DNA from: Anaerolineales bacterium UBA832 | GTDB lineage: Bacteria; Chloroflexota; Anaerolineae; Anaerolineales; UBA11657 | NCBI GenBank assembly: GCA_002296125.1 | Contig: DBHI01000120.1 | Span: 32,329 to 84,416 of the forward strand | DNA: 52,088 bases | Direction: 5' to 3' | Part shown: piece by piece, positions 5,913-42,172 of the stretch | Layout: each line of letters begins with the position of its first letter | How positions within the stretch are numbered: position 1 is the stretch's first letter | Program-made: the position numbers and the translations under genes | Notes under the pieces: generated by a model | Told to the model about the DNA's origin: nothing | What the model saw: only the letters and a program-made list of their open reading frames with translations | The model's database searches: none

Positions 5913-7681
5913 ATATAGTGGGAATACATGATGGTCACAACTCTAGTGTAACAATTGTACAAAATGGTAAGGTTTTAGCTGCTTGTCAGGAAGAACGTTT
6001 GACTCGTGTGAAAAATCAAGGTGGTTCACCAGTAAATGCTTTACATGAATCTTTGAGAATCAGTGGACTTGGCACATTGGACTCGATTGATCAATTTGTT
6101 ATAGCAGGCAGAGTATCTCAGCCACCATATATTACTCGTCAAGATGTTTTAGATGATTATGCTTATAAAAGTATGTATAGTAAATCAGCTATGGGAGCGC
6201 TGCGATCAGTAGTATCAGATAATGACTTGATCAGGAATTTATGGTTACGCTTACAAAAATATCAAACTTCTTCTGCGCAAAGAATGCGATCAAGTTTTTT
6301 AATTGATGAAGGAGTTCCGTTTGAAAAAGTTCAATTTATCGATCACCATACTGCACATGCATCTAGTGCATATTATGGTATGGCTAATTATGATGAACGT
6401 ATTTTAGTGTTAACTAATGATGGTGCTGGAGATGGTTTGTGTGGAACTGTGAGCATAGGATATGAAGGTCAGTTGCAGCGTATTGGACAGATATCAGAGG
6501 ACAATTCACTTGCTACTATTTTTGCAATGATAACTTATATGATGGGAATGGTTCCGCTTGAGCATGAGTATAAGATAATGGGTTTGGCTCCATATTATCG
6601 AGGTGATGTTAAAAACAATAAAGTATATCAAGGTCTTGTTAATATTTTTGAATGGGATCAAGAGACTCCATTTTTGTGGCGAAGGAGTGATCATATTCCT
6701 AGAGTTGGATATCTCTGGAAATATTTAGAAAATTTGCTACATAATCAACGTTTTGATTCTGTTGCAGCTAGTATGCAGGCATATACTGAGATGTTTATGG
6801 TTGAGTGGGTCAAACGTTGTATTCGTGAAACAGGAGTGACTAGAGTTGCTGTTGCTGGTGGTACGTTTATGAACGTGAAAGCTAATCAAGCATTGCTAGA
6901 TATACCAGACGTTGAAGAATTATTTGTTTTTCCTTCATGTGGTGATGAAACAAATTCGGTGGGTGCTGCTTATTGGTCTTATGCTCACAGTCAATTGTCG
7001 GATCATAAGACTGTCAATATTCATAAATTGGGTTCAATTTATTGGGGTGGTGAATTTAGTGATCATGAGATAGAAAATGTATTAGAAAATTTTAAGTTTA
7101 ATAGCAAAGAAGTCATTTATAAAAAACACGATAATATTGAGAGTATAGTAGCTGAACTTTTGTCTACTGACAAAGTAGTTGCTCGTTTCAAAGGTAGAAT
7201 GGAATTTGGTGCTCGTGCCTTAGGTAATCGATCTATACTTGCTAAACCATCTGATTTACAAGTTGTTCAATATATTAATGATATTATCAAATCCCGGGAT
7301 TTCTGGATGCCTTTTGCTCCAGCAGTTTTAGCGGAATATAGTGATGATTATTTTCGGAAAAACAAACCAATTAGTGCAAGTTATATGGTTATGTCATTTG
7401 ATACTAAGAAAAGTAAGCGAGGAGATATTATTGCATCTTTGCATCCTCAAGATGGTACTGCTAGACCACAGGAAGTATATTCAGATATGAATTCCGATTT
7501 TGCATCCTTGTTACAAGAATATCGTAGTATAACTGGAGAAGCTGTGCTTTTAAATACATCTTTTAATTTACATGGTTATCCATTAGTTTATTCTCCGTTA
7601 GATGCATTAAATGTTTTTAATAGATCTGGACTAGAATATATGGCTTTGGGAAATTATTTGGTATCTAAGTGCGAAAAATAA
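5909..7681 (+). CDS. Carbamoyltransferase, NodU/CmcH/TobZ family (copy 1)
   Basis: MNIVGIHDGHNSSV...QEERLTRVKN, HHTAHASSAYY, GRMEFGARALGNRSILAKP, FWMPFAPAVL and LLNTSFNLHGYPLV. ATGA overlap with the upstream GT4. Confidence 0.9.
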   Translation: MNIVGIHDGHNSSVTIVQNGKVLAACQEERLTRVKNQGGSPVNALHESLRISGLGTLDSIDQFVIAGRVSQPPYITRQDVLDDYAYKSMYSKSAMGALRSVVSDNDLIRNLWLRLQKYQTSSAQRMRSSFLIDEGVPFEKVQFIDHHTAHASSAYYGMANYDERILVLTNDGAGDGLCGTVSIGYEGQLQRIGQISEDNSLATIFAMITYMMGMVPLEHEYKIMGLAPYYRGDVKNNKVYQGLVNIFEWDQETPFLWRRSDHIPRVGYLWKYLENLLHNQRFDSVAASMQAYTEMFMVEWVKRCIRETGVTRVAVAGGTFMNVKANQALLDIPDVEELFVFPSCGDETNSVGAAYWSYAHSQLSDHKTVNIHKLGSIYWGGEFSDHEIENVLENFKFNSKEVIYKKHDNIESIVAELLSTDKVVARFKGRMEFGARALGNRSILAKPSDLQVVQYINDIIKSRDFWMPFAPAVLAEYSDDYFRKNKPISASYMVMSFDTKKSKRGDIIASLHPQDGTARPQEVYSDMNSDFASLLQEYRSITGEAVLLNTSFNLHGYPLVYSPLDALNVFNRSGLEYMALGNYLVSKCEK

Positions 7682-9330
7682 TATATAAACAATATTTACT
7701 AGCTATCTTGTGGGTTTTCATACTGTATATCCCTACTATTTATGCATTATCTTCATCTATAATTTCAGATAGATACTTCTCTGGTAGCATTGTAAATATT
7801 CATGACCATAATGCTTATCTATCATCAGTCCAAGATGGTATGAATGGAGAAGTATGGCTGGGGAATTTATTGTTTACTACTGAAAGTGATTTACCACAGG
7901 GACTGCATCATATTCATGCATCATTATTTTATAGAATACTTGGTTGGATTTATGGTTTGATTGGACTTCCAATAAATTTGTTTTATATAGTTATAGGAAG
8001 TATATTTGCATTTATAGCTTTTATTGGATATTGTAAACTATTTAATGCATGTTTTAGTAGTAAAAGAGAATTAACTGTAGCCATGATACTGTTGTTTGTT
8101 TTTCCTGGTGTATTGTGGATCAATCAACTCATGCAGCAAATTCCTGATAATACTACTTATTTTCCAAACCACATTTTATTTGCAGAACTGTGGGGAAATC
8201 CTAGTATGAATCCACTGACCCACAATAGTTATATGCCTCATTTTGTGTTTGCTACTGCTACTTCTTCTATTTTATTTTGTAGCTTACTTGAAGTGGTTCA
8301 CTCAAAATCTTCTAATTATTTGAGAATTGCAATATCTAGCTTGTTGGTAGCTTGGCTGTTACCTACATTAGGTATATTGTGGATAGCAATTTCCTTTACC
8401 TATATTCTATATAATAGATTGTATTTTGGTTTGTCTAATTCTAGAATCAAGTTATTATCTATTTCATTTGTACCAGCAGTTATACTATCTTTATGGTCAT
8501 CTCATTTAGTATTTCTCGATGAGTTTTGGGTAAAGTATATTTATACAAATGTTGTGATGAATGGAACTATTGACTTAGCTCTGTTCATTCTCCATTTAGG
8601 TATTTTTAGTATAGTAGTAGCATGGAGTATGTTTGAGATTGCCAAAAATCATACTAAGAATTCTGGAGGTACTGTATTAGCTGTTATATGGTTGTTCTGG
8701 TTATTTATTATTTCATTGGCATCTTTTCCAGGTTCTCCGAGATTTATGGATGGAATTTATTTGCCAGTTATTATCCTTGTAACATATGCTTATTCCAATA
8801 TTAGAAACACTAAACCAGCACTGTTACGATGGTTCAATTTAACAATAATTGTAGCTGTTTTACCAGGAACTATTCTTACATATATATATCCATGGTATGG
8901 TCACTTATATGTTCACTTTTTTGAGACGCGTTTAAATTTGCTTAGTGATGAAATTTGGCCAATACATTTATCTAAATCAGAGGCCAATACCCTGTACTGG
9001 CTTAAAGATAATGTTGATAATAGTGATGTTGTTATATCGGGACCGATAATGTCTAGTTTTGTACCGGCTTTTTCTGGTTCGAGGGTTTATTTTGGGCATA
9101 TTGGTAGAACAGTTGATTTTCATCGTAAGTTAGATGAATTACAGACACTTGAAGATACCAAAAGATTACCTTTACTTGAATTAGATGGGGATTTGTGGCT
9201 GGTGAGTACACCAAAAGAACCAATTGCTTCTCCGAGTAGATTGTATGTTGGTCAGACCAATTATTATTGTGCAACAGATAGTATTTTGATGGATGATGTT
9301 TCAGTGGTGCAATATCAATGGTGTGATTAG
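7669..9330 (+). CDS. Polytopic membrane protein (~12 hydrophobic segments plus a ~100-aa C-terminal soluble domain), putative GT-C-type glycosyltransferase
   Basis: GTG start overlapping the upstream stop. The first loop has an acidic/His cluster (SDRYFSGSIVNIHDHNAYLSSVQDG). The C-terminal segment SEANTLYWLKDNVDNSDVVISGP...FSGSRVYFGH resembles the periplasmic tail of GT-C enzymes. No family could be assigned by eye. Confidence 0.45.
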   Translation: MRKIIYKQYLLAILWVFILYIPTIYALSSSIISDRYFSGSIVNIHDHNAYLSSVQDGMNGEVWLGNLLFTTESDLPQGLHHIHASLFYRILGWIYGLIGLPINLFYIVIGSIFAFIAFIGYCKLFNACFSSKRELTVAMILLFVFPGVLWINQLMQQIPDNTTYFPNHILFAELWGNPSMNPLTHNSYMPHFVFATATSSILFCSLLEVVHSKSSNYLRIAISSLLVAWLLPTLGILWIAISFTYILYNRLYFGLSNSRIKLLSISFVPAVILSLWSSHLVFLDEFWVKYIYTNVVMNGTIDLALFILHLGIFSIVVAWSMFEIAKNHTKNSGGTVLAVIWLFWLFIISLASFPGSPRFMDGIYLPVIILVTYAYSNIRNTKPALLRWFNLTIIVAVLPGTILTYIYPWYGHLYVHFFETRLNLLSDEIWPIHLSKSEANTLYWLKDNVDNSDVVISGPIMSSFVPAFSGSRVYFGHIGRTVDFHRKLDELQTLEDTKRLPLLELDGDLWLVSTPKEPIASPSRLYVGQTNYYCATDSILMDDVSVVQYQWCD

Positions 9331-9433
9331 TGACTTTAGTTGATAACATATATATAATTGTTTGCAAAATGTTACTGATCAATTTGAGTGAATTTTGGAC
9401 ATATAAACTAATCAATAAATGTTGGTATTTTAG

Positions 9434-10915
9434 ATGAACGAAGTTGCACGCTTGTACCAAGTTAATAATAAGTCTATTGCTGTTAAACTTTTTGTTACAG
9501 TTTATCTGTTGTGCTTATTTTTTATGGATTCAACTTCCCATGGTGTATTTACTGGTACAAATAGATTCCAGTATTTATCTTATGCAATTGTAGAGAACCA
9601 GACTATAGATATTAGTATAGTTGAGGAACAATATGGAGAAACAGTTGAAGCTTATGAAGTAAATGGTAAGCGAGTACAAATAATTAATCCAGGATTGGGA
9701 TTACTAATGTCACCAGTTTATGCTTTGTCATCATCAATGGGTATAGAGGACTATATTGAAGGTACAATTGGTAATCAATGGATAACTCCATATAGAGGAT
9801 TGTTGTTTGCATTAATTATTAATGCAACTATGGCGGCAATATTTGTCACATCTTTGTGGTTAATTTTTCGGTGGTTAGGTTTATCTATCAAACTTTCGAT
9901 GAGTATTGCTATTGGAGTTGGATGGGGCAGTATGGCTGCTTATTATTTTACCGCTGGTACTAATGTACAAACTGCAGTTGAAACTGCTTTGTCTACTTTG
10001 GCCTGGCTTTTTATTATTGGGTTGGATCGTGGTATTAAGATTAAATATCATGCATTTTGGTCGGGTTTTTTCATGGGTATTGCGATTCTGGTGAATGTAC
10101 CTGCTGTTATAACAGCTATGTGTACAATGCTATATATTTTTTATGTGTATAGATCTAAAACATTAAGTTTTATCATAGGCTTAATACCAGGTATTATTAT
10201 TTTGTTGATTTATCAGTGGATTGCTTTAGGAAATCCTTTTTTGGATGTTCCTTTTGCATATTTTCAATCTAAAGGTTTGTACAGTAATCCCGATGATGTT
10301 AGCTTTATACAGGTTGCTTTGGAATTTCTAATAGGTTGGCACCAGGGCATAATTTGGTATTTTCCTTTATTGGTTGTTATGTTTATTGGAATACGTCGAT
10401 TGAAGACAAATAAGCATTTGACCATTGTTTGTTTGACATTAATGTTCTTGCATTGGATGTTTGCAACATGGTACACACATTTATGGATTCAAACCGAACA
10501 GATGCTGTCCTTTTATCCATGGTATGCTACTCCAGGACCAGGTGGACCAAGATACTTACTTCCAGCTGTACCATTTGTAGCAATTTTGATATCTCAAATC
10601 GATTATAGATATCTGTATTTGAGGACGTTTGCTGTTTGGTTAGGTGTTTTAGGAATGTGTTTAAATATTCCTGTATTGATGTATCCAGCAGGTGGACCTG
10701 TGTTTCGAAGTTTTATTTTAATGATGAAATATGGATTACAGGTTCCTCTAGCTAAAATAGTTGTTAACTATACTCAAAATGAATTCAAACTGTTTACTGT
10801 TGAAACTACATATGTGATAACGTGGTTGGTTGTTTTAATTGGAGCTTTGCTTTGGATATGGGGTATAAATAGATTTCGAGATTGGATTTTTGATGATTGT
10901 GAGTGTAGAGAGTAA
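9434..10915 (+). CDS. Polytopic membrane protein, putative GT-C-like glycosyltransferase
   Basis: 493 aa, at least 10 hydrophobic segments, and a large first extracytoplasmic loop (NRFQYLSYAIVENQTIDISIVEEQYGETVEAYEVNGKRVQIINPGLGLL). There is a late PGGPRYLLP motif. Preceded by a 103-nt gap. Confidence 0.4.
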   Translation: MNEVARLYQVNNKSIAVKLFVTVYLLCLFFMDSTSHGVFTGTNRFQYLSYAIVENQTIDISIVEEQYGETVEAYEVNGKRVQIINPGLGLLMSPVYALSSSMGIEDYIEGTIGNQWITPYRGLLFALIINATMAAIFVTSLWLIFRWLGLSIKLSMSIAIGVGWGSMAAYYFTAGTNVQTAVETALSTLAWLFIIGLDRGIKIKYHAFWSGFFMGIAILVNVPAVITAMCTMLYIFYVYRSKTLSFIIGLIPGIIILLIYQWIALGNPFLDVPFAYFQSKGLYSNPDDVSFIQVALEFLIGWHQGIIWYFPLLVVMFIGIRRLKTNKHLTIVCLTLMFLHWMFATWYTHLWIQTEQMLSFYPWYATPGPGGPRYLLPAVPFVAILISQIDYRYLYLRTFAVWLGVLGMCLNIPVLMYPAGGPVFRSFILMMKYGLQVPLAKIVVNYTQNEFKLFTVETTYVITWLVVLIGALLWIWGINRFRDWIFDDCECRE

Positions 10916-12099
10916 TGGCAAAGAATAGTATTGTTTTTATGATGGATTATAGGGGTGATCAATTACAAATTGGTGGTACATCTAATTATTTGAAATTGCT
11001 TGCTCCTAGAGTTCGCGATCTTGGATTTGATGTTAGGGTTGCTATGCCATATTCAAATCGTACAGAAGATGTACTTGATTTTATGAGTGAACAAAATATT
11101 ACAGTTGATAATGTTGATATTTCACCTCAGTTTGGGAATGTATTTGATCGTATCTATGCTGCTTACAGTTATTTTTCTAGAGTACGTCCTGATCTCGCTC
11201 ATTTTATTTTGCCGTGGTGGAATTCATGTGAGTATGGTATTTTGGGTGCAAGATTGGCAAGTATTGGATCTAGGATTGTAACTTATCAATCTTTTCCTGA
11301 AAAAATTGATGAAAAAATATTTAAAGGAGTGAAGGGATTCTTGCGTTTGCGTAGGCACTTGTTTACTTGTCATTCTGTACATAAAGCTATTTCAGTAAGT
11401 GAAATAAATAAACATAGGCTTATAAATAATAAGTTTTATTTATCCAATAAAGTAAAAGTTATTAGAAATATGATTGAATCTTGTAAGTTTTCTTCTATAG
11501 AGAACTCCATAGATTTTCGTAAGATATGGGGGATTGGTGATCATAAAACAATTATTACTGTGATAGGATATCTTGAACCAATTAAAGGTCATAAATATTT
11601 GTTCGACGCTTTGCCAAATATTGTTAAAGTACATCCTAATGTTATTGTTTTAGTAGTTGGTGATGGTGAATTGAGGGAGTATTTTCACAAGCAAGTGCGT
11701 GAATTAAATGTTGAAGAAAATGTATTGTTTGTTGGCTGGCAGAATGACATTCCTAACATTTTATCAGCGTCAGACATGTTAATATTACCCTCTTTGTCAG
11801 AAGGACTTCCGTTTGTAATTCCAGAAGCAATGGCTGCTGGTTTACCTATTGTGTCTACAAGAGTAGGGGGTATTCCAGAAGCAATTGTTGATGGACAAAC
11901 AGGATATTTGGTAGATCCGAAATCATCCATGGAAATAGCGGAAGCAGTCATAAAGATGCTAGATAATCCTGAAAGGATGTTATCGATGGGTAGTGCTGGT
12001 CAAGTACGTGCTATTACTGAATTTGATGTAAGTCGCATGGTTTTAGATACATGTGGTGTGTACAATGATGTTTTGTTCAATGGTTTGATAGATAGATAA
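10915..12099 (+). CDS. GT4-family glycosyltransferase
   Basis: LEPIKGHKYL...VVGDGELR, then SLSEGLPFVIPEAMAAGLPIVSTRVGGIPEAIVDGQTGYLV (E-x7-E). TAATG 1-nt overlap with the upstream gene. Confidence 0.88.
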   Translation: MAKNSIVFMMDYRGDQLQIGGTSNYLKLLAPRVRDLGFDVRVAMPYSNRTEDVLDFMSEQNITVDNVDISPQFGNVFDRIYAAYSYFSRVRPDLAHFILPWWNSCEYGILGARLASIGSRIVTYQSFPEKIDEKIFKGVKGFLRLRRHLFTCHSVHKAISVSEINKHRLINNKFYLSNKVKVIRNMIESCKFSSIENSIDFRKIWGIGDHKTIITVIGYLEPIKGHKYLFDALPNIVKVHPNVIVLVVGDGELREYFHKQVRELNVEENVLFVGWQNDIPNILSASDMLILPSLSEGLPFVIPEAMAAGLPIVSTRVGGIPEAIVDGQTGYLVDPKSSMEIAEAVIKMLDNPERMLSMGSAGQVRAITEFDVSRMVLDTCGVYNDVLFNGLIDR

Positions 12100-12180
12100 A
12101 TAATAGTGTTAACTTGTCTGCAACTATGTTTTGGGTATTACAAATTGATTTCTGAATGAATGATTGATTGATACATATTT

Positions 12181-13299
12181 ATGATCAGAGATATATTATT
12201 CTTTCAACATAACACAGAATTTGGTCTTACTGAACGATATCTATCACAGTTGGCTATTAAGTTAGATCGTTCGAAATTTCGATCACATCTTGTATATCCA
12301 GATGCTAGCAAATTAGATGAGTTTAAAGATTTGGTAGAGTATGGGGTAAATTTACATGTTTTACCAGAACAAGTTTTCAATATAAATTTTTTTCACAGCA
12401 TCAAAATCATAAGGGAATCATTAATAGATTTAAAACCAGATTTGATTCATTTTAATGATCCGGGTGTTATTGGAATGTTGGCTGCACGTTTATATAATTC
12501 TTCGCCAATAGTAATGACACATCATACTCCAGAGCTTGATAGAAATTATGATTTGCCTGGAAAAATTTTGGAAAAACTGGCTTTTTTGGGTAATACTGAA
12601 GTAATTTTTACCTCGGAACAAGATAGTAGAACTGGCGGTATACTGGATGGTAATTATAAATGGAATCACACGGTCATCCCATATGGAATAGATGTTTCGT
12701 TATTTGATGGAGATTTAAACAAGAAGGATATATTTGATAGATTTAACATCCCTTACGATCACAAAGTGGTTGTAAACGTTGCGAGATTAGTACCTCAAAA
12801 AGGTCACAAATATCTTATTTTAGCGGCTGAGAATGTTATTGAAACAATTGAGAATGTGTCTTTTTTGATTATAGGTGATGGTGAATTGCGACAGGAGCTA
12901 CAATACCAAGTCGATCAAGCAGGGATTTCTGATCGTTGTATTTTTGCTGGCTATGTGTCAGATGTGCATAACATACTCAATGTTTGCGATGCTTTTGTGA
13001 TGCCATCTTTGTTTGAAGGGTTATGTATGGCTGTGTTAGAAGCTTCTGCATCTGGTCTACCTGTAGTTTCAACAAGAGTTGGTGGAATTCCGTCCGTGGT
13101 TGTTAATGACGAGACAGGAATATTGGTTCCCGTGAAAGATGTAGATGAATTGACTTCAGGGATTATGAAAATGATTTGCAATCCAGAATATTCCAATAGA
13201 TTGGGTGAATCAGGAAGAAATATTGTTGTGGAAAAATTTTCAGTAGAATCAATGATAAAAAATACAGAAGATCTTTACGATAGGATTCTTGGCAAATAA
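12181..13299 (+). CDS. GT4-family glycosyltransferase
   Basis: LVPQKGHKYL...IIGDGELR and SLFEGLCMAVLEASASGLPVVSTRVGGIPSVVVNDETGILV. Confidence 0.88.
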   Translation: MIRDILFFQHNTEFGLTERYLSQLAIKLDRSKFRSHLVYPDASKLDEFKDLVEYGVNLHVLPEQVFNINFFHSIKIIRESLIDLKPDLIHFNDPGVIGMLAARLYNSSPIVMTHHTPELDRNYDLPGKILEKLAFLGNTEVIFTSEQDSRTGGILDGNYKWNHTVIPYGIDVSLFDGDLNKKDIFDRFNIPYDHKVVVNVARLVPQKGHKYLILAAENVIETIENVSFLIIGDGELRQELQYQVDQAGISDRCIFAGYVSDVHNILNVCDAFVMPSLFEGLCMAVLEASASGLPVVSTRVGGIPSVVVNDETGILVPVKDVDELTSGIMKMICNPEYSNRLGESGRNIVVEKFSVESMIKNTEDLYDRILGK

Positions 13300-13305
13300 A
13301 GGGAC

Positions 13306-14283
13306 ATGATATCTATGGTTAATGATCCGATGGTCAGTGTAGTGATTGCTTCTTATAATCGTGCAGATTTTATATATGATTCTATTGTGAGTGTACAAAA
13401 CCAGACTTTTACAGATAAAGAGATAATTGTTGTTGATGATGGTTCAACTGATGATACACGCAGTATACTCCAAGAGTTTGGTGGACAAATAAGTGTAATA
13501 TATCAAAGTAACCAGGGTAGATCAGCAGCTAGGAACAATGGTGTAATGAATGCAAAAGGCAGACTCATTGCTTTTTTGGATTCGGATGATGTATGGATGC
13601 ATGATAAATTAGACAAGCAGGTAGATATGTTGTTTGATAAATCAGATGTGGGATTAATACATACTTTCTCAGATGTGATTGATTCAAGTGGTATATTCAT
13701 CCCACATGAAAGTAAACTTCGCCAAAAACTTCATACACAGTCTGTTAAAAAGGGATATTCTTATGAAAGCTTAAGTGAAAATTGTGTAATGTTTCTGTCA
13801 ACAGTGATGGTTCGACGGGATTGTTGGGATGATGTTGGTCCTATGGATATTACAATACCTGCATTTGAGGATTGGGATTGGTATATGCGATTGTCACGTA
13901 AATATAATGTAGGAGTTATCCCAGAAATATTAGTACATTTTCGATTGCATGAATCTAATACTTCTCAAAAAGAATTTTTTCAAGGCAGAATTTTGACATG
14001 CGAGAAGCATTTGAAGTGGTTAAATGAGCAAACTGCTGGAAATGAGAATGTATTGAATGTTAGACGTAATTTTTATCTACAGCTTGCCGGAGCATATTAT
14101 GTACATAATGATTCTCTGCAAGTTGGTTTGTATATGCGTAAGGCAATAGAAATTGATAGAAATGTAGTTTTTAATTTGTACAATTTGCGTTATATATTAA
14201 CGATGTTATTTTCTGATAGGGTGTCTAACACTCTCCGACAATTAAAGAGACTAGTCATTAAGTTAATGATTAGAAATAGATAG
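13306..14283 (+). CDS. GT2-family glycosyltransferase
   Basis: VSVVIASYNRADFIYDSIVSVQNQTFTDKEIIVVDDGSTDDT, with the acceptor-side motifs FLDSDDVW and EDWDWYMRL. Confidence 0.88.
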   Translation: MISMVNDPMVSVVIASYNRADFIYDSIVSVQNQTFTDKEIIVVDDGSTDDTRSILQEFGGQISVIYQSNQGRSAARNNGVMNAKGRLIAFLDSDDVWMHDKLDKQVDMLFDKSDVGLIHTFSDVIDSSGIFIPHESKLRQKLHTQSVKKGYSYESLSENCVMFLSTVMVRRDCWDDVGPMDITIPAFEDWDWYMRLSRKYNVGVIPEILVHFRLHESNTSQKEFFQGRILTCEKHLKWLNEQTAGNENVLNVRRNFYLQLAGAYYVHNDSLQVGLYMRKAIEIDRNVVFNLYNLRYILTMLFSDRVSNTLRQLKRLVIKLMIRNR

Positions 14284-14326
14284 ACCCTATTTTGGACTGT
14301 TTCTTTATAATTTTAGTTAAGATATT

Positions 14327-15064
14327 ATGAAACATTTTGATGAACGTATTGTTCCTGATAATGTTCCGATAGGAATATTGTCAATGCATATCAAGCGTTA
14401 TGAGTTTGTGAAATCATATATGAGACGAGGGTATGTATTGGATGTTGCATGTGGTGTTGGCTACGGGTCTCGTTATTTGGTTGATGCAGGTTTTAAAGTT
14501 ATAGGCGTGGATATTGATGTAGAGTCTGTGTCATATGCTCAATCTCGTTATTCAGTATTGGGCAATCCTAAATTTGTTGTTGCGGACGCGATTGCAATGG
14601 GATTTGGTTGTAAAACATTTGATGTAATATGTTCGTTTGAAACAATTGAGCATATTAAGGATCCCAATTTATTTTTACAGGAAATAAAAAGATTACTAAA
14701 AGATGATGGAATATTTGTTGTTTCTACACCGATTGCTAGCGATACTACAAATAATCCAGCAAACCCATTTCATTTTCAAGAATGGAGTCCAAACGATTTT
14801 CGGAACTTACTTAGTAAATATTTTGATCATGTTGAATTGTTTTCGCAGGTGCGTAGGCAGACGGATTCTAGTACGCTTTTAAAACGTCTTGACATTTTGA
14901 ATTTACGTAAGTGGTTTTTACCCAAAATATTAGTTAGAAAATTAGCTAATATTGCTGGAGTGCAAGCAATGGATAGTATGCTTGTGGATCACATAGATAT
15001 TATAGATGGGATAGTTGAAGGAGCTAGCGAGATAATAATAATAGCGAAAAATGAAAACGATTAA
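14327..15064 (+). CDS. Class I SAM-dependent methyltransferase
   Basis: Motif I VLDVACGVGYGSRYL, post-I VIGVDID, and FDVICSFETIEHI. Confidence 0.85.
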   Translation: MKHFDERIVPDNVPIGILSMHIKRYEFVKSYMRRGYVLDVACGVGYGSRYLVDAGFKVIGVDIDVESVSYAQSRYSVLGNPKFVVADAIAMGFGCKTFDVICSFETIEHIKDPNLFLQEIKRLLKDDGIFVVSTPIASDTTNNPANPFHFQEWSPNDFRNLLSKYFDHVELFSQVRRQTDSSTLLKRLDILNLRKWFLPKILVRKLANIAGVQAMDSMLVDHIDIIDGIVEGASEIIIIAKNEND

Positions 15065-15860: not shown

Positions 15861-15869
15861 GGTAAGTCA

Positions 15870-16994: not shown

Positions 16995-16998
16995 ATTT

Positions 16999-21729: not shown

Positions 21730-21732
21730 ATT

Positions 21733-30111: not shown

Positions 30112-30119
30112 GTTAATTA

Positions 30120-32815: not shown

Positions 32816-32922
32816 GTTCAGTGGGTAATTTTGTTATTGTCTAATTTGTGTGTTTTGATCTAGTAATACATAATATACAGGTACAAGCAATATCTAAGCA
32901 ATTATAATAATTGAGGTCAAAT

Positions 32923-33939
32923 ATGAATTTGGATGGCAAAAAAGTTTTAGTAACAGGTGGAGCATCTTTTATTGGTTCTCATCTCACAGATGCATTAGTC
33001 GATAAAGGAGCAGAAGTACGTATTGTGGATAACCTTAGTAGTGGGCATTTGGAAAACATCAAATCTCATCTTGAATCTGGAAAAGTTGATTTTGTTGAGG
33101 CCGATCTAACTACTCCTGGTGTTTCAGTTGATGTGGTGAAAGATATACAAATTGTGTTTCATTTAGCAGCAGATCATGGTGGTCGAGGATATGTTGATTT
33201 ACATCAAGCTGCATGTACTACGAATTTAGCGTTGGATGGTATGTTGTTTCGTGCATGTCATGAAGAAGGAGTAGATAAAGTTGTGTATGCATCATCAGGG
33301 TGTGTATATCCTAATCATTTACAAAACAATCCGGATGAAATTCTCTATTTGACTGAAGATATGGTGGGACCTCCATATGATGCAGACAATATGTATGGAT
33401 GGGCTAAATTAATGGGTGAAATGACTTTACAAGCTTTTTATAAAGATTGGGGTCTTAAATCAGCTAGTTGTCGATATTTTACTGTGTATGGTGATCGAGG
33501 TCATGAAAATCACGCTGTAATTGCTATGATTGCTCGTGCATTCGTTAACCAAGATCCATATGTGGTGTGGGGTAATGGAGAGCAAATTCGTAATTGGACG
33601 CATGTTGATGATATTGTATCGGGCACTATATTAGCAGCAGAGAAAATAGATGATGGTACTGCAATTAATCTGGGTACTATGGAACGTACACGTGTTATTG
33701 ATGCTGTAGAAGAGGTACTTAAATCTACTGGTCATAATGCTACTATTGAGCTTCATCCTGAAATGCCAACAGGTCCGATGAATAGAGTTGCAGACAACAA
33801 ATTAGCTAGAGAGCTTCTTGATTGGTCACCTGAGGTTAAGTTTATGGATGGTTTACATCGAACAATTGAATGGTACTTTTCTACAAAAGATCGGGATCAG
33901 GTAAGCGCTGTTTTGGAAGATCGTCTTACTGAGCGTTAG
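32923..33939 (+). CDS. NAD-dependent epimerase/dehydratase family protein (extended SDR)
   Basis: The ATG at 32923 lies 6 nt after GAGGT (32913-32917); the ORF track starts at TTG 32911. KVLVTGGASFIGSHLTDAL and YGWAKLMGE. Preceded by the largest intergenic gap in the window (107 nt). Confidence 0.85.
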   Translation: MNLDGKKVLVTGGASFIGSHLTDALVDKGAEVRIVDNLSSGHLENIKSHLESGKVDFVEADLTTPGVSVDVVKDIQIVFHLAADHGGRGYVDLHQAACTTNLALDGMLFRACHEEGVDKVVYASSGCVYPNHLQNNPDEILYLTEDMVGPPYDADNMYGWAKLMGEMTLQAFYKDWGLKSASCRYFTVYGDRGHENHAVIAMIARAFVNQDPYVVWGNGEQIRNWTHVDDIVSGTILAAEKIDDGTAINLGTMERTRVIDAVEEVLKSTGHNATIELHPEMPTGPMNRVADNKLARELLDWSPEVKFMDGLHRTIEWYFSTKDRDQVSAVLEDRLTER

Positions 33940-33942
33940 TTT

Positions 33943-35187
33943 ATGAATGATATTTTGATGTTAAGCTTGGTATATGGTCCTGATACTGTATCTACAGCAA
34001 ATATGATGACAGATATTGCCAAGGGATTAGGTGAAAAAGGACATAATGTAACAGTGCTTACATCTGTTCCTCATTACAATCCATCTGATGAAGTTATCAA
34101 AAATCCAGTAATGCATTTTAGTTGGTTTAAGTTCTATTCAGAATCTATGGAAGATGGTGTGAGGGTGCTACGTGTTTTTATGCCACCCAAGAGGCATAAA
34201 ATTTGGGCACGAGCATTTGATTATTTGATTTTTCAGATATTAACAACTTGGTTAGGTTTGTTTAAGGTATCAAGTCCTGATGTGGTTTTTGTTACTTCGC
34301 CTCCAATTACACTTGGGATAAGTGGAATATTGATTGCATTATTTAGGAGTGGTAAGTTTGTATATGATGTGCGCGAGTTGTGGCCTGATGTTCCAGTGAG
34401 GATGGGATTATTTCGGAATGCTTTGCTAATTAAGTTTGTATATTGGTTAGAAGATTTCGTGTATAGTAAGTCTGCATCTATATCAACTATAGCTCGTAGT
34501 TTTCGAGACACATTAATTGTAAGAGGTGTGTCTGAAGACAAGTTGTATTTTACTCCTAACTTTGTTGATATAGATTTTATCATTCCATCTAATAGGGTTA
34601 ACAAATTTTCTGTTACGCATGGATTAGATGGAAAGTTTGTTGTGCTATATGCTGGTAATGTTGGCTTGACTCAGGGCCTTGAAATATTGATTGATGTTGC
34701 CAGATATTTTGAAAGTAATAATGAAGTTCAGTTTGTAATTGTAGGAGATGGAGCAGCTCATGCTCAATTAGAAAATGTAATTATTGAATCTGAAGTTAAT
34801 AATTTAACAATGTTACCGTTTCAATCAACTGAATTAGTGAATGACATGTATGCTACTTCCAGCATATGTATTGTGCCCTTAAGGAAGGGTTTTTCCTATG
34901 ATACAGTGCCATCCAAGATTTATACATCGATGGCTGCAGGTCGTCCCGTTGTTGCTTCTGCTGAAGAAGATTCAGAAACAGCATTTTTGTTAAATGAATC
35001 TGATGCAGGAATATCTGTGGAACCAGAAAACCCAAGTGCTTTAATTAATGCAATTTGTGAATATTATCAAAACAGAGATAGTATTTTGGTTTCAGGTGAA
35101 AATGGCAGGAGATGGATCGAACAATATTATTCTAAATCCGTTGTTATTGATGCATATAATGACATGGTTTTAGATATTGTTGACTGA
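33943..35187 (+). CDS. GT4-family glycosyltransferase, WbuB/WcaI-like
   Basis: N-terminus LSLVYGPDTVSTANMMTDIAKGLGEKGHNVTVLTSVPHYN is typical of the WbuB/WcaI subgroup. YAGNVGLTQGLE and SKIYTSMAAGRPVVASAEEDSE. Confidence 0.8.
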   Translation: MNDILMLSLVYGPDTVSTANMMTDIAKGLGEKGHNVTVLTSVPHYNPSDEVIKNPVMHFSWFKFYSESMEDGVRVLRVFMPPKRHKIWARAFDYLIFQILTTWLGLFKVSSPDVVFVTSPPITLGISGILIALFRSGKFVYDVRELWPDVPVRMGLFRNALLIKFVYWLEDFVYSKSASISTIARSFRDTLIVRGVSEDKLYFTPNFVDIDFIIPSNRVNKFSVTHGLDGKFVVLYAGNVGLTQGLEILIDVARYFESNNEVQFVIVGDGAAHAQLENVIIESEVNNLTMLPFQSTELVNDMYATSSICIVPLRKGFSYDTVPSKIYTSMAAGRPVVASAEEDSETAFLLNESDAGISVEPENPSALINAICEYYQNRDSILVSGENGRRWIEQYYSKSVVIDAYNDMVLDIVD

Positions 35188-36430: not shown

Positions 36431-37471
36431 ATGTATGATGAATTAAGAATAACATTAATATTGATAACAACTCTTTATTTAAGTGATTTGGGTATTAAGA
36501 GGATGATCTTGTGGGCAACAAGCAAGGGGATATTAGATGTTCCTGGTGAGCGTAGTTCACATAGCATTGCTACTCCAACTGGTGGGGGTATTGTGATTGC
36601 ATTAGTTACTATTATTGTTTATTTAATTTCGAGCACAATTTTGCCTTCATGGTTTAAGTTTGATATTGCATCTTTTTTAATAGCATCTATAGTGATTGCT
36701 TTGATAGGATGGATGGATGATTTGTATTCCGTATCAGCTTTATGGAGATTTAGCATACAATCTGTTGTGGCAGTTTTTATGATTGTAACAGTAGGATTAT
36801 ATGACGAAATTGGAATATATGATTATTCGATCAGTTTGTCATGGTTAGGTTTTCCGATCACCTTTTTGTGGATTGTAGGTTTAATTAATGCGTTCAATTT
36901 TATGGATGGTATTGATGGAAATGCTGGGGGAATTAGTGTAGTAGCAGGAATATTTTGGTGTTTGATTTCTATATACCAAGGGGAGTTAAGTTTATTTGTT
37001 TTGAGTATTTTGGTAATTATGAGTTGTTTTGGTTTTTTGATGCATAACTGGCATCCTGCAAAAATATTTATGGGGGATAGTGGAAGTACTTTTCTGGGTT
37101 TTACTTTTGCGGTTATTCCACTTTTTATGTATCAATCAACTGGAAATATAAAAATTCCTATTGTGGGAGTTTTGATTGTTTCTCCATGGATTTGGGATGC
37201 AATTTACACGTTTTTGAGAAGATTATTTCGTAAGGAATCAGTTTTTACGGCACATCGTACATATATGTATCAGCGTTTGACTACTGCTGGATATTCACAT
37301 AGTCTGGGATCTGCTATTTATATTGCCCTTTGTATGCTTACCGGTATGTTAGGCTATATATATATAACTAGTACTGCTTCGAGACATTTGTTGATTGTTT
37401 TATGTTGTTCAATTGTACTGATAGGACAATTAGTCTTGGTGCTTATTGCTGAGGGTAGACAACATTCATGA
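36431..37471 (+). CDS. Polyprenyl-phosphate HexNAc-1-phosphate transferase, MraY/WecA/WbpL superfamily (initiating PGT, copy 1)
   Basis: GWMDDLYS, NAFNFMDGIDGNAGG and FMGDSGSTFLGF. About 10-11 hydrophobic segments. Confidence 0.88.
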   Translation: MYDELRITLILITTLYLSDLGIKRMILWATSKGILDVPGERSSHSIATPTGGGIVIALVTIIVYLISSTILPSWFKFDIASFLIASIVIALIGWMDDLYSVSALWRFSIQSVVAVFMIVTVGLYDEIGIYDYSISLSWLGFPITFLWIVGLINAFNFMDGIDGNAGGISVVAGIFWCLISIYQGELSLFVLSILVIMSCFGFLMHNWHPAKIFMGDSGSTFLGFTFAVIPLFMYQSTGNIKIPIVGVLIVSPWIWDAIYTFLRRLFRKESVFTAHRTYMYQRLTTAGYSHSLGSAIYIALCMLTGMLGYIYITSTASRHLLIVLCCSIVLIGQLVLVLIAEGRQHS

Positions 37472-38586: not shown

Positions 38587-40086
38587 ATGGTTAATATTGG
38601 AACTTTATTGTTAGGGTTTGTTAGTGGATTAATATTGGTCTGGTGTGCTACTGCAATATTTAGAAAGTTTGCTCCAGGATTAGGTTTGGTGGCTGTAGAA
38701 AACTTTCGTAGCTCGCACATTGGTACTGTGCCTGTGGCAGGAGGCGTGACATTTGTTGTCATTTCTCCATTAATAGCTTTGTTCATAGCTAATCAAATAG
38801 ATGTTCATCTAGAGCGCAGTGATTGGGCTTTGCTTGTTTCTGGGTGGTTTATAGCAATTGTGAGTCTGATAGATGACTGGAAACCACTTCCAGCTCGTGT
38901 GAGATTAGTGGCACAGGTTTGGGCTGTTTTGGGGCTAATAATATATGCAAGATATCTGCGGTTTTTTGGTGCAGGAAGTTTTGGGGTTGTTGATGTAGGT
39001 TGGTTAGGAGTATTGATAACCATTGTGTGGGTTTTAGGTATGTCAAATGCTTTTAATTTTATGGATGGCATGGACGGTCTTGTGGCTGGGCAAAGTCTTA
39101 TTGTTGCTCTCAGTGTAGCTTGGATGAGTATGAATGTGGGTTTGAGTTGGATGGCAATATTATCTGCTTCATTAGGAGGTGGATTGTTGGGTTTTTTTAT
39201 GCATAATGTTTCACCAGCTCGTGTGTTTATGGGTGATGTTGGCAGTATATGGTTAGGTTTTTTATTTTCAGGTATGGCGGTAATAGGAGCTCCTAGAAGT
39301 GGTGAACGTTTGTCTCTTGGTTTTTGGATATTGATACTTGGTATATTTTTGCTTGATTCAGGATTAACATTGGGCAGAAGGTTGTTGCAAGGTGAGCCTG
39401 TGTTAGAGGCTCATAGAACACATTATTATCAACGTTTGTTAAGCATTGGTTGGGGTCATGGTCGAGTGACCACATGGTATTTGGTGATGGCGACTATTTT
39501 GGCCGGGGTATCAATTGTGCACTTTGATATTTGGCGATTACCATTTGTAGTACTTGTAGTAGTAGGATTAATGGCTTTTGCGGGCACTTTTGCATTAGTG
39601 CATTATGTGGAAAGTTATAAAGTTGAGTTTGAATCTGAGCATGGTAGCCCATTGGGGAAAGTAACTGCTGGTGGATTACTTAAGCCGTTTGTACGTCTAT
39701 TACAACATTCAGGTACTGTTTTGATGATGGATGGAGCGATAGTGGTTATTGCATATCTCATGGCTTTTAGATTAGGTGTTGGTAATTGGTTTGATATTGA
39801 TATTAGAGACGGTATTATTGCTGTATTTTTTGTGCATTTAACCTTGAATTTGGCTTTGGGGATTTATATTGAAAAGTTATCCTTATCAAGATTGTCCTTA
39901 ATATTGCGGATATTATCATCATGTCTAATGTCATTTATTGCTTTGTTATTAGGAGAGATTTTATTGGGACCGGTGAGATCTATTCCAGTCATAGTATTGA
40001 TAATCGGTACAGGAATGAGTGCTATCGGATTTGTATTAGTACGCTCTAGAAGAACTTTGCAACAAGAAAGGTTCATCAAAGATTGA
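38587..40086 (+). CDS. MraY/WecA/WbpL-family PGT (copy 2) fused to a C-terminal 4-TM module resembling the N-terminal membrane domain of CapD/PglF/WbpM
   Basis: N-terminal ~330 aa: LIDDWKPLP, NAFNFMDGMDGLVAG, FMGDVGSIWLGF. C-terminal ~150 aa: LMMDGAIVVIAYLMAFRLGV...LALGIYIEKLSLSRLSLILRIL...VRSIPVIVLIIGTGMSAIGFVLVRSRR, which matches by eye the D-x6-A-x-x-A-F-x-LRF / G-x-Y...R-x-x-S layout of the WbpM-type TM domain. Confidence 0.7.
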   Translation: MVNIGTLLLGFVSGLILVWCATAIFRKFAPGLGLVAVENFRSSHIGTVPVAGGVTFVVISPLIALFIANQIDVHLERSDWALLVSGWFIAIVSLIDDWKPLPARVRLVAQVWAVLGLIIYARYLRFFGAGSFGVVDVGWLGVLITIVWVLGMSNAFNFMDGMDGLVAGQSLIVALSVAWMSMNVGLSWMAILSASLGGGLLGFFMHNVSPARVFMGDVGSIWLGFLFSGMAVIGAPRSGERLSLGFWILILGIFLLDSGLTLGRRLLQGEPVLEAHRTHYYQRLLSIGWGHGRVTTWYLVMATILAGVSIVHFDIWRLPFVVLVVVGLMAFAGTFALVHYVESYKVEFESEHGSPLGKVTAGGLLKPFVRLLQHSGTVLMMDGAIVVIAYLMAFRLGVGNWFDIDIRDGIIAVFFVHLTLNLALGIYIEKLSLSRLSLILRILSSCLMSFIALLLGEILLGPVRSIPVIVLIIGTGMSAIGFVLVRSRRTLQQERFIKD

Positions 40087-40108: not shown

Positions 40109-42172
40109 TTGACAGAGAGATATTCTAAATATTGTATAACCGTTTTACTTCTTGTTGTAGCATTGATGTGTAGTATAAGAGTGTTTGCTACTCCTTTTAA
40201 TGATAATGAAGGTGGATTTCCGGATGAATTATTCCATGTTGGTCGTTCTTTGCAAAATACCATCCGGATTTCAGAATTGATCAATTTCGGTCATATTGAT
40301 AATTCTGTGGATGATTTAGCAGGTTTTAGTTCTAGAGTAGAAACGGTTTGTGAATTAGGTATTGAAAAGCCAGATATTTGTCCTGGATATTTCGAGTCTC
40401 GTGTTAACAATGTATATCCCGTCAGTAGTGGGAATATTCGTGGAAAGGGAGTCTATATTTTTCATGGACTTATGCAATTAGTATTACATAATGTTAACGT
40501 TGGTTTTAGGATATATTTCGCTAGGATGATGGCCGTTATGATTGGTGTGTTAATGGTTTATGTTATATATAGATTATCTTTTCTATTGTTTCATGATCAA
40601 AGATTGGCTATTGCTGTTGCTGCATCCATTGGTCTAATGCCATCTGTTAGTAACATTGTTAGTGCAGTATCTACAGAAGGACCGGCATTATTGGCAGTAG
40701 CATTACTATTGTTATCAACCACAATCATTGTTGTTCAAGGATTTTCTATTGCGAGATTGTTGCTTTTTGGGTTTTCAGTGTTATGTTGTCTTTTTACAAA
40801 AATTACTGCGATAATACCTTTGCCTATATTGATGTTGTTTTTCCTAGATAGGGTTGGTTTCAGTTGGAAAAAATTGCTTGCGGTTTTTGGTTTTCTCATA
40901 GTCATTGCTATAACATTTTTAAGAGGTGATGCGACAAAAGCAGGTGTAGCACATTGGTACTTTGAGAGGAATCCTGGTCTAGTATCTGTACACGGTACAC
41001 CAGTAAAGTTGGCTTATCAGGTATTTTATAAATCATATGGGGTTGAAAAGAATATAAAACCGAATGCTATTGCGAATGATTGGGCCATTGGTTATACATG
41101 TTTGACTGAATTTGATAATATTTCTTGTGATTCATTTCCATCCCAGTTTTCAAATACTATTGTACAATTTTTGCCAACTAGAGAGGCTAAAAGATTAGCT
41201 GGTAAAATCGTTACTTTTGGATCATGGATGTATGCTAATGATGGTGAAATAGTTAGTAGTCCAGCAATTGTTTTAGGATATGATAATGCTAATCAAGATG
41301 TAGTTGGTGGTTCGCAACATACAGGTAATGGTGCATGGGAATTTGTAGTCAATCATATTCAGTTGCCTAATGATATACGTGATATTGGAGTGAGTTTGGA
41401 TGCTAGCAATCAATCCCTAATATTTTGGGACGATATAGTTTTAATAGAAGGATTGCTAGGTGCCGAAGGTGGACCACCAGTTTTTGATAATAGAGACTCT
41501 TCTTCAGGTGTTTGGAATGGAATTAGATTTAGCAATTTATTAAAAAATGGCTCTGCCGAGCAACATTGGAACAATGTTCCTGATAGTCTTTGGTCATTTA
41601 TGATTAATTATGGTACTGGAACATGGGCTAATAGATTAAATGGTCAATTATTTACACTTTATGATTTAGATCGTACAGGATCAGGATATTTTGCAGGTAT
41701 CCGAGCTATGTTTGTTACTTTTTGGGGGTCTTTTGTGGGTGGTGATTGGCCTGGTTTGGCTCGTTGGCATTATGTTGTTGCGATCGTATTTGTGATCATA
41801 TCTTTGTACGGGTGGCTCCGATATGTCAATTTCGATAGTAAGCTAAAAGTTATGCCATTAGGTTTACCATTATATTTTTGGTGTTTGATATTGGCATATC
41901 TGATAACAGGTATTTTACGTATGGAGATATCTGCTGAATGGGTACCTCCTTTATATTATTCGACCTCAAGATTTGTCTTGCCAGCTATAATTCCTGTGAT
42001 GTTATTGTTAATTTCTGGTTTAGTATTTTTGACAAGCAGGAAATTAAGTCGACTGTTAATAGCTACATTAGTACTTCTGATTTTTTTAGCTAATTCTTGG
42101 ATGTTGTTGCGTGTTGAATTACCATATTTTAAGTGTGACATTGAACCGCGTTGGGTGTGTACAGATCTGTAA
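40109..42172 (+). CDS. Large polytopic membrane protein (687 aa) with a ~270-aa central extracytoplasmic domain, putative GT-C-type glycosyltransferase (DUF2142-like N-terminus)
   Basis: TTG start. The first loop FNDNEGGFPDELFHVGRS carries a PDE-x-x-H motif recalled from DUF2142/GT-C proteins. About 8 hydrophobic segments are followed by a soluble region (~aa 290-560) and then 4 more hydrophobic segments. Confidence 0.45.
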   Translation: MTERYSKYCITVLLLVVALMCSIRVFATPFNDNEGGFPDELFHVGRSLQNTIRISELINFGHIDNSVDDLAGFSSRVETVCELGIEKPDICPGYFESRVNNVYPVSSGNIRGKGVYIFHGLMQLVLHNVNVGFRIYFARMMAVMIGVLMVYVIYRLSFLLFHDQRLAIAVAASIGLMPSVSNIVSAVSTEGPALLAVALLLLSTTIIVVQGFSIARLLLFGFSVLCCLFTKITAIIPLPILMLFFLDRVGFSWKKLLAVFGFLIVIAITFLRGDATKAGVAHWYFERNPGLVSVHGTPVKLAYQVFYKSYGVEKNIKPNAIANDWAIGYTCLTEFDNISCDSFPSQFSNTIVQFLPTREAKRLAGKIVTFGSWMYANDGEIVSSPAIVLGYDNANQDVVGGSQHTGNGAWEFVVNHIQLPNDIRDIGVSLDASNQSLIFWDDIVLIEGLLGAEGGPPVFDNRDSSSGVWNGIRFSNLLKNGSAEQHWNNVPDSLWSFMINYGTGTWANRLNGQLFTLYDLDRTGSGYFAGIRAMFVTFWGSFVGGDWPGLARWHYVVAIVFVIISLYGWLRYVNFDSKLKVMPLGLPLYFWCLILAYLITGILRMEISAEWVPPLYYSTSRFVLPAIIPVMLLLISGLVFLTSRKLSRLLIATLVLLIFLANSWMLLRVELPYFKCDIEPRWVCTDL

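Follow-up and report, generated by a model that had tools for sequence, protein, structure and literature searches.

A probable envelope-glycan gene cluster of marine Chloroflexota, unusually dense in GT-C-type membrane proteins

We analysed a stretch of 52,088 nucleotides (the window) from Anaerolineales bacterium UBA832 (assembly GCA_002296125.1, contig DBHI01000120.1, positions 32,329 to 84,416 of the forward strand). An earlier note, made from the sequence alone, had flagged seven polytopic membrane proteins in it as glycosyltransferases of the GT-C type. Prediction by sequence, profile or model identifies at least five of these (16945, 18807, 26000, 28489 and 9434; proteins are named by the start of their open reading frame, or ORF) as GT-C-fold membrane glycosyltransferases. 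A sixth, 40109, is a probable member, and the seventh, 7669, is tied to the others by its layout and a weak profile link, so the reading of all seven as GT-C is not fully proven. The cluster that contains them is an unusually GT-C-dense form of a known kind of system, with a function that we infer only. Overall it is best read as a conserved assembly line for an envelope glycan with heavy extracytoplasmic glycosylation, which we consider rather probable. Feature coordinates are given in Table 1.

All seven ORFs were found on the + strand, and they encode proteins of 437–687 amino acids (aa). One of them had been placed at 16999, which is an in-frame ATG inside ORF 16945; the ORF itself is real, and public gene calls fit a start at 16978 (610 aa). 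The GT-C fold consists of a polytopic membrane domain with approximately 7–13 transmembrane (TM) helices (PMC11127046), and the extracytoplasmic loop that follows TM1 bears one or more conserved acidic catalytic residues (PMC2610374, PMC11127046). The donors of GT-C enzymes are lipid-linked and are used on the extracytoplasmic side of the membrane (PMC11127046, PMC2610374). A crude Kyte–Doolittle scan gave 7–11 hydrophobic segments in the seven proteins, and AlphaFold2 (AF2) predicts helical bundles for 18807 and 40109. The note had counted at least 10 segments in each; this holds for 16945, 18807, 28489 and 40109 (10–11), but not for 9434 and 26000 (7–9), with 7669 in between (9–10). A soluble C-terminal or central domain, described as present in most, was found in six of the seven and is lacking in 9434. 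It takes the form of a C-terminal tail in 7669 (150 aa), 16945 (202 aa), 18807 (196 aa) and 28489 (94 aa), and of a central loop in 40109 (280 aa) and 26000 (128 aa).

A common layout unites the seven: a short basic N-terminal tail, TM1, and an acidic first loop of 67–115 aa that is poor in lysine and arginine. Aspartate or glutamate residues in this loop are conserved in at least 80% of each of the seven families. Judging by the basic tail and the charge bias, the loop would lie outside the membrane. The acidic or histidine-rich motifs to which the note drew attention do sit in this loop, after TM1, and are conserved within each family. They are IHDHNAY (residues 44–50 of 7669, with H45, D46, N48 and Y50 invariant in 13 homologues), PFDIQDE (residues 54–60 of 16945), PDELFH (residues 38–43 of 40109) and ADLRGDLLHH (residues 41–50 of 26000). 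The window encodes 11 polytopic membrane proteins in all, and the remaining four, which the note had omitted, are two Wzy_C-family proteins (22904 and 24356) and two WecA-type transferases (36431 and 38587). Their first loops measure 24–34 aa; among the polytopic proteins of the window, the long acidic first loop is a predicted feature specific to the seven.

The majority of the seven did not prove to be transporters, Wzy polymerases or acyltransferases. The Pfam Wzy_C model (PF04932) matched 22904 and 24356 only, and the seven families aligned to these two proteins with hhalign probabilities of at most 0.9%. None of the seven matched the Pfam Polysacc_synt families, MATE, Acyl_transf_3 or MBOAT at E ≤ 0.1. 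The matches to NCBIfam models were all far below threshold. The number of proteins that are not assignable by Pfam or NCBIfam is four (7669, 9434, 18807 and 40109), which have no Pfam match at E ≤ 0.1 and no NCBIfam match, and not five as had been thought. Sequence searches of the PDB with these four orphans, using both single sequences and family profiles, returned nothing; these searches are uninformative, because the Pfam-positive proteins 16945, 26000 and 28489 find no PDB chain either. The expectation that several members might be new GT-C families was supported, in that the four orphan families have no Pfam domain and only 16–62 detectable relatives in collections of 1.8–5.8 billion proteins.

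Three of the proteins are predicted GT-C enzymes by the curated gathering cutoffs of Pfam PMT_2 (PF13231) and PMT (PF02366). Protein 16945 scores 31.4 bits against PMT (cutoff 22.7) and 26.5 bits against PMT_2 (cutoff 26.1), and residues D56, D59, E60 and D69 of its first loop are conserved. Proteins 26000 and 28489 pass the PMT_2 cutoff by a wide margin (Table 1), and their families align with each other with an hhalign probability of 57%. Both have weak NCBIfam matches to the LA_3751/LA_3752 family, and 26000 in addition to archaeal STT3.

Orphan 9434 is supported by profile comparison as a GT-C outside the Pfam models. An exhaustive HMMER scan of 1.84 billion representative proteins found 62 remote relatives. 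Among the 45 that were aligned, PMT_2 domains occur in three, PMT in two, and GT87 and a TMEM260-like domain in one each, and some carry TPR tails. The resulting family profile (A4) aligned to the family of the PMT_2 protein 26000 with an hhalign probability of 83% (E = 9e-6), over residues 73–264 of 9434 and 62–234 of 26000, compared with 0.4% for a Wzy_C control. Across the 45 sequences only four columns are invariant, R373 among them. We had considered 9434 as the missing Wzx-type flippase, and rejected this on account of its links to PMT_2. On one 13.7-kb contig, two distinct paralogues of the 9434 family (P0059 and P0061) lie beside a homologue of 18807 (P0052).

For 18807 and 40109, AF2 models were compared with the PDB using Foldseek. 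The model of 18807, built from an alignment of 14 homologues, has a pLDDT of 62 and a pTM of 0.57, with blocks of the transmembrane core at pLDDT 70–91. Its best 26 matches are all GT-C proteins, after which the matches fall to G-protein-coupled-receptor noise. They include yeast and human STT3, PglB, AftA, DPY19, ArnT, AglB, Pmt4, ALG9 and ALG3, with E = 1.2e-5 and TMq 0.48 for PglB (6gxc) and E = 4e-5 for AftA (8if8). D53 and D74 of the first loop are invariant. The WWDxG motif was absent from all 11 candidate proteins in a regular-expression search, and membership of the oligosaccharyltransferases was dropped as a claim for 18807, which lacks it. The model indicates that 18807 has a GT-C fold and is not a canonical oligosaccharyltransferase. 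The family is small, with 21 clusters in a collection of 5.8 billion proteins, no member of which has a Pfam domain, and relatives in five of 185,579 GTDB species representatives.

Protein 40109 is a probable GT-C, divergent and PMT_2-like, that carries a carbohydrate-binding-like domain as an insertion, as far as profiles and the model allow. Its model has an overall pLDDT of 58, rising to 64–86 over residues approximately 349–475. This central β-sandwich matched carbohydrate-binding modules (CBMs) of families CBM16, CBM4, CBM61 and CBM22 and a hyaluronan-binding module, with E values from 3e-3 and TMt 0.4–0.5. CBM domains are known in the GT-C enzymes EmbA/B/C, AftD and GT136 (PMC11127046), and the model predicts such a fusion of a CBM to a GT-C membrane domain in 40109. 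The transmembrane part gave one plausible match, to Pmt4 (9i5l_A), which is weak (E 0.013, probability 0.96). A homologue with 40% identity (P0034) has a sub-threshold match to PMT_2 (E 0.0045, 17.6 bits) over residues 136–267, the stretch (TM2–TM6) for which hhalign also gives weak alignments with 16945, 26000 and the 9434 profile. Residues D39, E40 and H43 of the first loop are nearly invariant. Its family, of 20 clusters in the 5.8-billion-protein collection, is without Pfam domains.

The most obscure of the seven is 7669, which we regard as a possible GT-C on the strength of its sequence features. It begins with the basic N-terminal tail and TM1, followed by an acidic first loop of 75 aa in which D46, D56 and E72 are conserved. 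Its family of 16 clusters in the 5.8-billion-protein collection contains no Pfam domain, and a scan of metagenomes found 17 loci, all in the same narrow clade and with 40–56% identity. Permissive Pfam scans (E ≤ 10) of 15 members, including the most divergent orthologues, matched no GT-C family, and no transporter, Wzy or acyltransferase family. Aligned by hhalign to the 9434 superfamily, 7669 gave a probability of 22% (E = 9.5e-4) in the C-terminal membrane half, where the invariant SPRFMDGIYLP of 7669 is paired with GPRYL..LP of the 9434 family. Local hidden Markov model (HMM) cross-searches yielded hints of 5–7 bits only, toward GT-C-like proteins.

This pairing is part of a common motif, [GSA]-[PS]-R-[FY]-[LMV]…P, at the start of a late transmembrane segment. 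Its arginine is invariant within each family (R358 in 7669, R373 in 9434 and R621 in 40109), and may bind the phosphate of the lipid donor. As the pattern 'PR[FY][LM]' was set post hoc, an enrichment test is not statistical evidence, and only the invariance of the arginine within families was used. The motif bears on a different explanation, that at least one orphan, chiefly 7669 and possibly 40109 or two unassigned proteins encoded downstream of the window, is a flippase, a polymerase or co-polymerase, or an exporter rather than a glycosyltransferase. Three observations could be accounted for in this way: no flippase of a known family was found in or around the window, 7669 has no link to Pfam, NCBIfam or the PDB even by profiles, and for the transmembrane part of 40109 the fold match is weak. 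However, both proteins share the long, acidic, conserved first loop of 9434 and the invariant arginine of 'PR[FY][LM]..P', and for 9434 the GT-C link is supported. Their weak profile matches point only to GT-C-like proteins, members of neither family matched MOP/Wzx, Wzy_C or acyltransferase models at E ≤ 10, and hhalign probabilities against Wzy_C were below 1%. We therefore consider a role other than glycosyl transfer rather unlikely for these orphans, and retain them as candidate GT-C proteins.

The seven are not paralogues of one another. When the 11 membrane proteins were compared all against all with blastp and phmmer, the only related pairs were the two Wzy_C proteins and the two WecA-type transferases. 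Among the small orthologue profiles of the seven, only 26000 and 28489 reached an appreciable hhalign probability, and the larger 9434 profile added the link to 26000. As there is no other mutual relationship, the proteins represent at least five or six sequence-distinct GT-C lineages.

Flanks of 10 kb on each side were read from longer contigs of the same organism, giving approximately 72 kb in all with the window. Seven is an underestimate of the GT-C content of the locus, since four more GT-C-like proteins are encoded directly downstream. Past the window end (L032:11502-19521) there is a gene for a 60-aa DUF5989 protein, followed by genes for a YfhO-like protein of 815 aa (26.6 bits, cutoff 28.5), an orphan of 642 aa that matches the 9434-family HMM with 21.8 bits and carries the sequence APRFMLP, a PMT_2 protein of 509 aa (30.4 bits) and an orphan of 535 aa. 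The whole cluster may thus encode up to 11 GT-C-type proteins. All 40 ORFs of at least 150 aa in the window are on the + strand, coding sequence fills approximately 98% of its length, and at many gene junctions a stop codon overlaps with a start codon. It is fairly likely that a single-strand, operon-like cluster for envelope-glycan assembly extends over more than 72 kb, with the window as its central 52 kb.

Other components of such an assembly line were recognised in the window. The two WecA-type transferases share 28% identity, and their presence suggests that two separate lipid-linked glycans are started. Protein 36431 scores 120 bits against the WecA-like model TIGR02380, and 38587 has a C-terminal extension of approximately 160 aa with about four hydrophobic segments, giving 14 overall. 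The two Wzy_C proteins are adjacent paralogues with 37% identity and could be a polymerase together with a ligase or an O-oligosaccharyltransferase. A 48-bp tandem duplication (2.1 copies, 90% match) lies within 24356 at 25303-25403 and encodes an acidic repeat (…ESLFISDDIQDLEN / ESLFVGDNTQDLEN…) in a large loop of the protein. Soluble glycosyltransferases are interleaved with the membrane proteins, and a block of nucleotide-sugar tailoring genes lies at the end of the window (Table 1).

These components would fit the following pathway. Two WecA-type transferases would initiate glycans on polyprenyl phosphate on the inner side of the membrane, and approximately ten soluble GT-A and GT-B transferases would lengthen these by adding unusual sugars (amino, C-methyl, deoxy, amidated, O-methylated and carbamoylated) supplied by the tailoring enzymes. 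The lipid-linked intermediates would then be flipped by a transporter encoded elsewhere, and the two Wzy_C proteins would polymerise them, ligate them to an acceptor, or both. Outside the membrane, each GT-C would use a polyprenyl-phosphate-linked donor to attach a particular branch or extension. Extracytoplasmic elaboration of a glycan, as the note had proposed, would be the outcome. The most likely product, given the host and the gene content, would be a complex, lineage-conserved heteropolysaccharide of the cell wall or surface layer in a phylum generally regarded as monoderm.

Several points weigh against this pathway. No Wzx/MOP, ABC, GtrA, SMR or MATE transporter was found in the 72 kb, no flippase was found in the relatives examined either, and no polyprenyl-phosphate-sugar synthase of the GtrB, ArnC or Ppm1 type was found in the 72 kb. 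The 72 kb therefore offer no recognised donor supply for 7–11 GT-C proteins. The GT2 proteins 3379 and 13306 were considered as donor synthases of the GtrB/ArnC type, and this was unsupported: their best NCBIfam scores are to EpsE/TuaG, with only 27–30 bits for ArnC. A cell-wall ligase of the LCP type was not seen in the 72 kb, and we infer the acceptor, donors and product of the cluster entirely. The two AF2 models have low overall confidence (pLDDT 58–62) and the first loop of 18807 is poorly modelled, while 7669 has no family or fold evidence beyond its 22% hhalign probability. Finally, the envelope type of the host is assumed from the taxonomy labels of metagenome-assembled genomes (MAGs), and one contig is labelled Rhodospirillaceae.

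The acceptor might also be protein. In that case the GT-C proteins, alone or with the PglL-like Wzy_C proteins, would glycosylate surface or S-layer proteins, as in the archaeal Agl, Campylobacter Pgl and actinobacterial PMT systems. The Wzy_C family includes the PglL/PilO O-oligosaccharyltransferases. The best fold matches of 18807 are to the oligosaccharyltransferases STT3 and PglB, three of the proteins fall in Pfam families named for protein O-mannosyltransferases, some 9434 relatives have TPR tails as do TMTC-type protein O-mannosyltransferases, and some Chloroflexota have proteinaceous outer layers (PMC13319060). However, the WWDxG motif that defines STT3, PglB and AglB is in no candidate, and no candidate target protein is encoded in the 72 kb. 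PMT_2 is a broad family, and some of its members, such as ArnT, modify lipids or glycans. The CBM-like domain of 40109 speaks for a carbohydrate as acceptor, and ten soluble glycosyltransferases with two Wzy_C proteins suit a polymer. Protein glycosylation thus appears unlikely as the main role of the cluster, and we prefer the assembly of an envelope glycan.

Gene order across essentially the whole window is kept in related contigs (L008, L009, L012, L013, L020, L023, L031, L036 and L037) at approximately 40–65% protein identity. It therefore appears that the cluster is a conserved lineage trait and not a serotype island. The relatives come from Tara Oceans and other marine metagenomes, in MAGs labelled Chloroflexi, Anaerolineales or Anaerolineaceae, and we incline to the view that a marine lineage labelled Chloroflexota ('Anaerolineales') has kept the cluster as a conserved trait. 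This phylum is taken to be monoderm, its outer layers being 'composed of polysaccharides or proteins' (PMC13319060), which fits the analogy with a monoderm cell-wall glycan drawn in the note. We found no report linking GT-C enzymes with Chloroflexota in the literature searched. The edges of the cluster vary: L014 and L011 have a gene for a B12-binding radical-SAM protein between the orthologues of 7669 and 18807 (L014:8215-9681), and L036 has an additional PMT_2 gene inserted ahead of the GDSL-like gene (L036:3644-5155).

The same data argue against an ordinary hypervariable O-antigen or capsule island of a diderm, in which the membrane proteins would be a mosaic accumulated by horizontal transfer. 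Such an origin could explain the weak NCBIfam matches to Leptospira-type families (TIGR04326 for ORF 587, and LA_3751/LA_3752 for 26000 and 28489), the contig labelled Rhodospirillaceae, and the deviating GC content of 38587, which at 0.39 (skew 0.38) is the highest of the locus. It is difficult to reconcile with a gene order kept over more than 50 kb between lineages, with a uniform GC content of 0.31–0.36 in nearly all genes of the window, and with source labels that are nearly all Chloroflexota, a phylum reported to lack lipopolysaccharide (LPS) and BAM genes (PMC13319060). We consider a serotype island most improbable.

The nearest functional analogue of the proposed envelope-glycan pathway is the assembly of arabinogalactan and lipoarabinomannan (LAM) in mycobacteria and corynebacteria (EmbA/B/C, AftA-D and mannosyltransferases, whose donors are decaprenyl-phosphate sugars), with which it is parallel in logic. 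In both, a WecA-type enzyme would initiate a single wall glycan, on which many different GT-C proteins would then work one after another outside the membrane, the host phylum has no classical LPS outer membrane, and CBMs are found in some of the GT-C proteins (PMC11127046, PMC3044687); the 18807 model also matches AftA. The differences are that there is no sequence-level relationship to Emb or Aft proteins, that two Wzy_C proteins are present here, that equivalents of the DPPR synthase, DprE and the SMR flippase were not found here, and that the CBM-like domain of 40109 is central rather than C-terminal. The density of GT-C proteins is also higher, with seven in 34.5 kb and up to 11 in approximately 72 kb, compared with approximately 15–16 in the whole genome of Mycobacterium tuberculosis (PMC2610374). 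A bolder version of the envelope-glycan reading is that in marine Anaerolineae-like Chloroflexota a conserved outer envelope layer is built largely outside the membrane by up to 11 GT-C proteins, several of unrecognised families, and two Wzy_C proteins, as an independent, non-actinobacterial counterpart of arabinogalactan and LAM. Because no known family of polyprenyl-phosphate-sugar synthases or flippases is found in the cluster, donor supply or flipping would then be unconventional, and an orphan family such as 7669 might fill the role; we put this forward as a tentative idea that is probably wrong in its full extent.

Three-component systems (GtrA/GtrB/Gtr, Citrobacter youngae GT136, and the Gram-positive GacL and YfhO/CsbB/GtcA systems) likewise use a GT-C on a lipid-linked or wall glycan outside the membrane, and C. 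youngae GT136 also has a CBM (PMC11127046). They usually have one GT-C per locus, and loci with several have been singled out as unusual (PMC11127046). Unlike in these systems, a search for a polyprenyl-phosphate-sugar synthase and a small flippase found neither near any of the seven genes. With the PMT_2/PMT proteins (GT39, and ArnT-like GT83), the connection is by Pfam cutoffs for 16945, 26000 and 28489 and at profile or sub-threshold level for 9434 and 40109; however, the proteins have no sequence match to a solved PMT or ArnT chain, and their mutual identity is below BLAST detection. STT3, PglB and AglB are the best structural matches of the 18807 model, in both the transmembrane core and the C-terminal soluble domain, but 18807 has neither WWDxG nor a Pfam STT3 match, and identity in the structural alignments is 9–13%. 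Leptospira has giant surface-carbohydrate loci that are low in GC, very long and co-oriented. The present cluster resembles them in these three respects and in its weak matches to TIGR04326 and to NF047440 (LA_3751/LA_3752), but those matches all score far under the curated cutoffs, the host is of another phylum and envelope type, and there is no LPS context here.

The wall polymers characteristic of mycobacteria are made by GT-C enzymes, which are also drug targets; in organisms other than Actinobacteria such enzymes are usually found one at a time, in the role of side-chain modifiers. If our reading is correct, a conserved Chloroflexota cluster with 7–11 mutually unrelated GT-C-type proteins provides a genetic handle on the composition of the outer envelope. 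It also offers four to six candidate new families for CAZy-type classification (7669, 9434, 18807, 40109 and the two unassigned downstream proteins). That no donor synthase or flippase can be recognised marks a well-defined gap that can be tested.

Table 1. Features of the cluster, with coordinates in the window unless a contig is named
Feature	Coordinates	Strand	Basis
Glycosyltransferases, cytoplasmic, interleaved	3379..35187	+	Pfam Glycos_transf_1, Glycos_transf_2
GT-B (Glycos_transf_1), n=8	4677, 10915, 12181, 15870, 20602, 21733, 27234, 33943 (starts)	+	Pfam
GT-A/GT2, n=2	3379, 13306 (starts)	+	Pfam Glycos_transf_2
NodU/CmcH-type carbamoyltransferase	5909..7681	+	Pfam Carbam_trans_N, Carbam_trans_C; NodU-like by NCBIfam
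Polytopic orphan membrane protein, possible GT-C, 553 aa	7669..9330	+	Layout and weak profile link
Divergent GT-C, PMT_2-like superfamily, 493 aa	9434-10915	+	hhalign and domains of remote relatives
GT-C, PMT/PMT_2 type, 603-621 aa by start (16945, 16978 or 16999)	16945..18810	+	Pfam
GT-C-fold protein (predicted), orphan family, 587 aa	18807..20570	+	AF2 model and Foldseek
Wzy_C-family protein (polymerase, ligase or O-oligosaccharyltransferase type), 478 aa	22904..24340	+	Pfam Wzy_C 61.7 bits
Wzy_C-family protein, second, 538 aa	24356..25972	+	Pfam Wzy_C 57.6 bits
GT-C, PMT_2 family, 437 aa	26000..27313	+	Pfam PMT_2 56.7 bits (cutoff 26.1)
GT-C, PMT_2 family, 540 aa	28489..30111	+	Pfam PMT_2 51.3 bits
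NodU/CmcH-type carbamoyltransferase, second copy	30120-31844	+	Pfam Carbam_trans_N/_C; NodU-like by NCBIfam
WecA/MraY-type polyprenyl-phosphate N-acetylhexosamine-1-phosphate transferase (initiating)	36431..37471	+	Pfam Glycos_transf_4 139.9 bits
WecA-type transferase, second	38587..40086	+	Pfam Glycos_transf_4 117 bits
Polytopic protein, divergent PMT_2-like GT-C candidate, 687 aa	40109..42172	+	Profile and model
Central beta-sandwich, CBM-like domain of 40109, residues ~349-475	41153..41533	+	AF2 and Foldseek
Nucleotide-sugar tailoring block	42151..51813	+	Pfam and NCBIfam
Arginine motif sites	8740-8772 (7669), 10544-10576 (9434), 41963-41995 (40109), L032:15697-15740 (downstream orphan)		

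The tailoring block encodes an AsnB-type amidotransferase, a DegT aminotransferase, a sugar C-methyltransferase, three epimerase/dehydratases, a methyltransferase and an FAD amine-oxidase-like protein, and is syntenic in L036 and L037. Elsewhere in the locus, Pfam and NCBIfam identified several S-adenosylmethionine-dependent methyltransferases, many epimerases and dehydratases of the SDR type and a GDSL-like protein. Each of the two carbamoyltransferase genes adjoins a GT-C-type gene: 5909 and the start of 7669 share 13 nt, an adjacency kept in most related contigs, and 30120 starts 8 nt after 28489.

The upstream 10 kb (L034:1-10000) encode a PIG-L-family deacetylase, a 2-hydroxyacid dehydrogenase, two GFO/IDH/MocA oxidoreductases, three methyltransferases and a CTP_transf_3/NTP_transf_3 cytidylyltransferase, together with an inositol-monophosphatase-family gene (a truncated ORF at 33-545 of the window). 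They might be a hint of a sugar activated by CMP or CDP, or of an inositol-derived unit. At 587-2464 there is a gene for a 625-aa protein that has no Pfam domain and occupies the same position in related contigs. It has a sub-threshold match (E 6e-26, 91 bits, cutoff 250) to TIGR04326, a 'surface carbohydrate biosynthesis protein' family named after Leptospira LIC13510. The GC content of the window is approximately 0.33 (0.31–0.39 for individual genes), with approximately 0.2–0.29 at third codon positions. GC skew is strong and uniform from 1 to 52088 (+0.14 to +0.40 per 2 kb), which suggests a strand-compositional bias of this genome.

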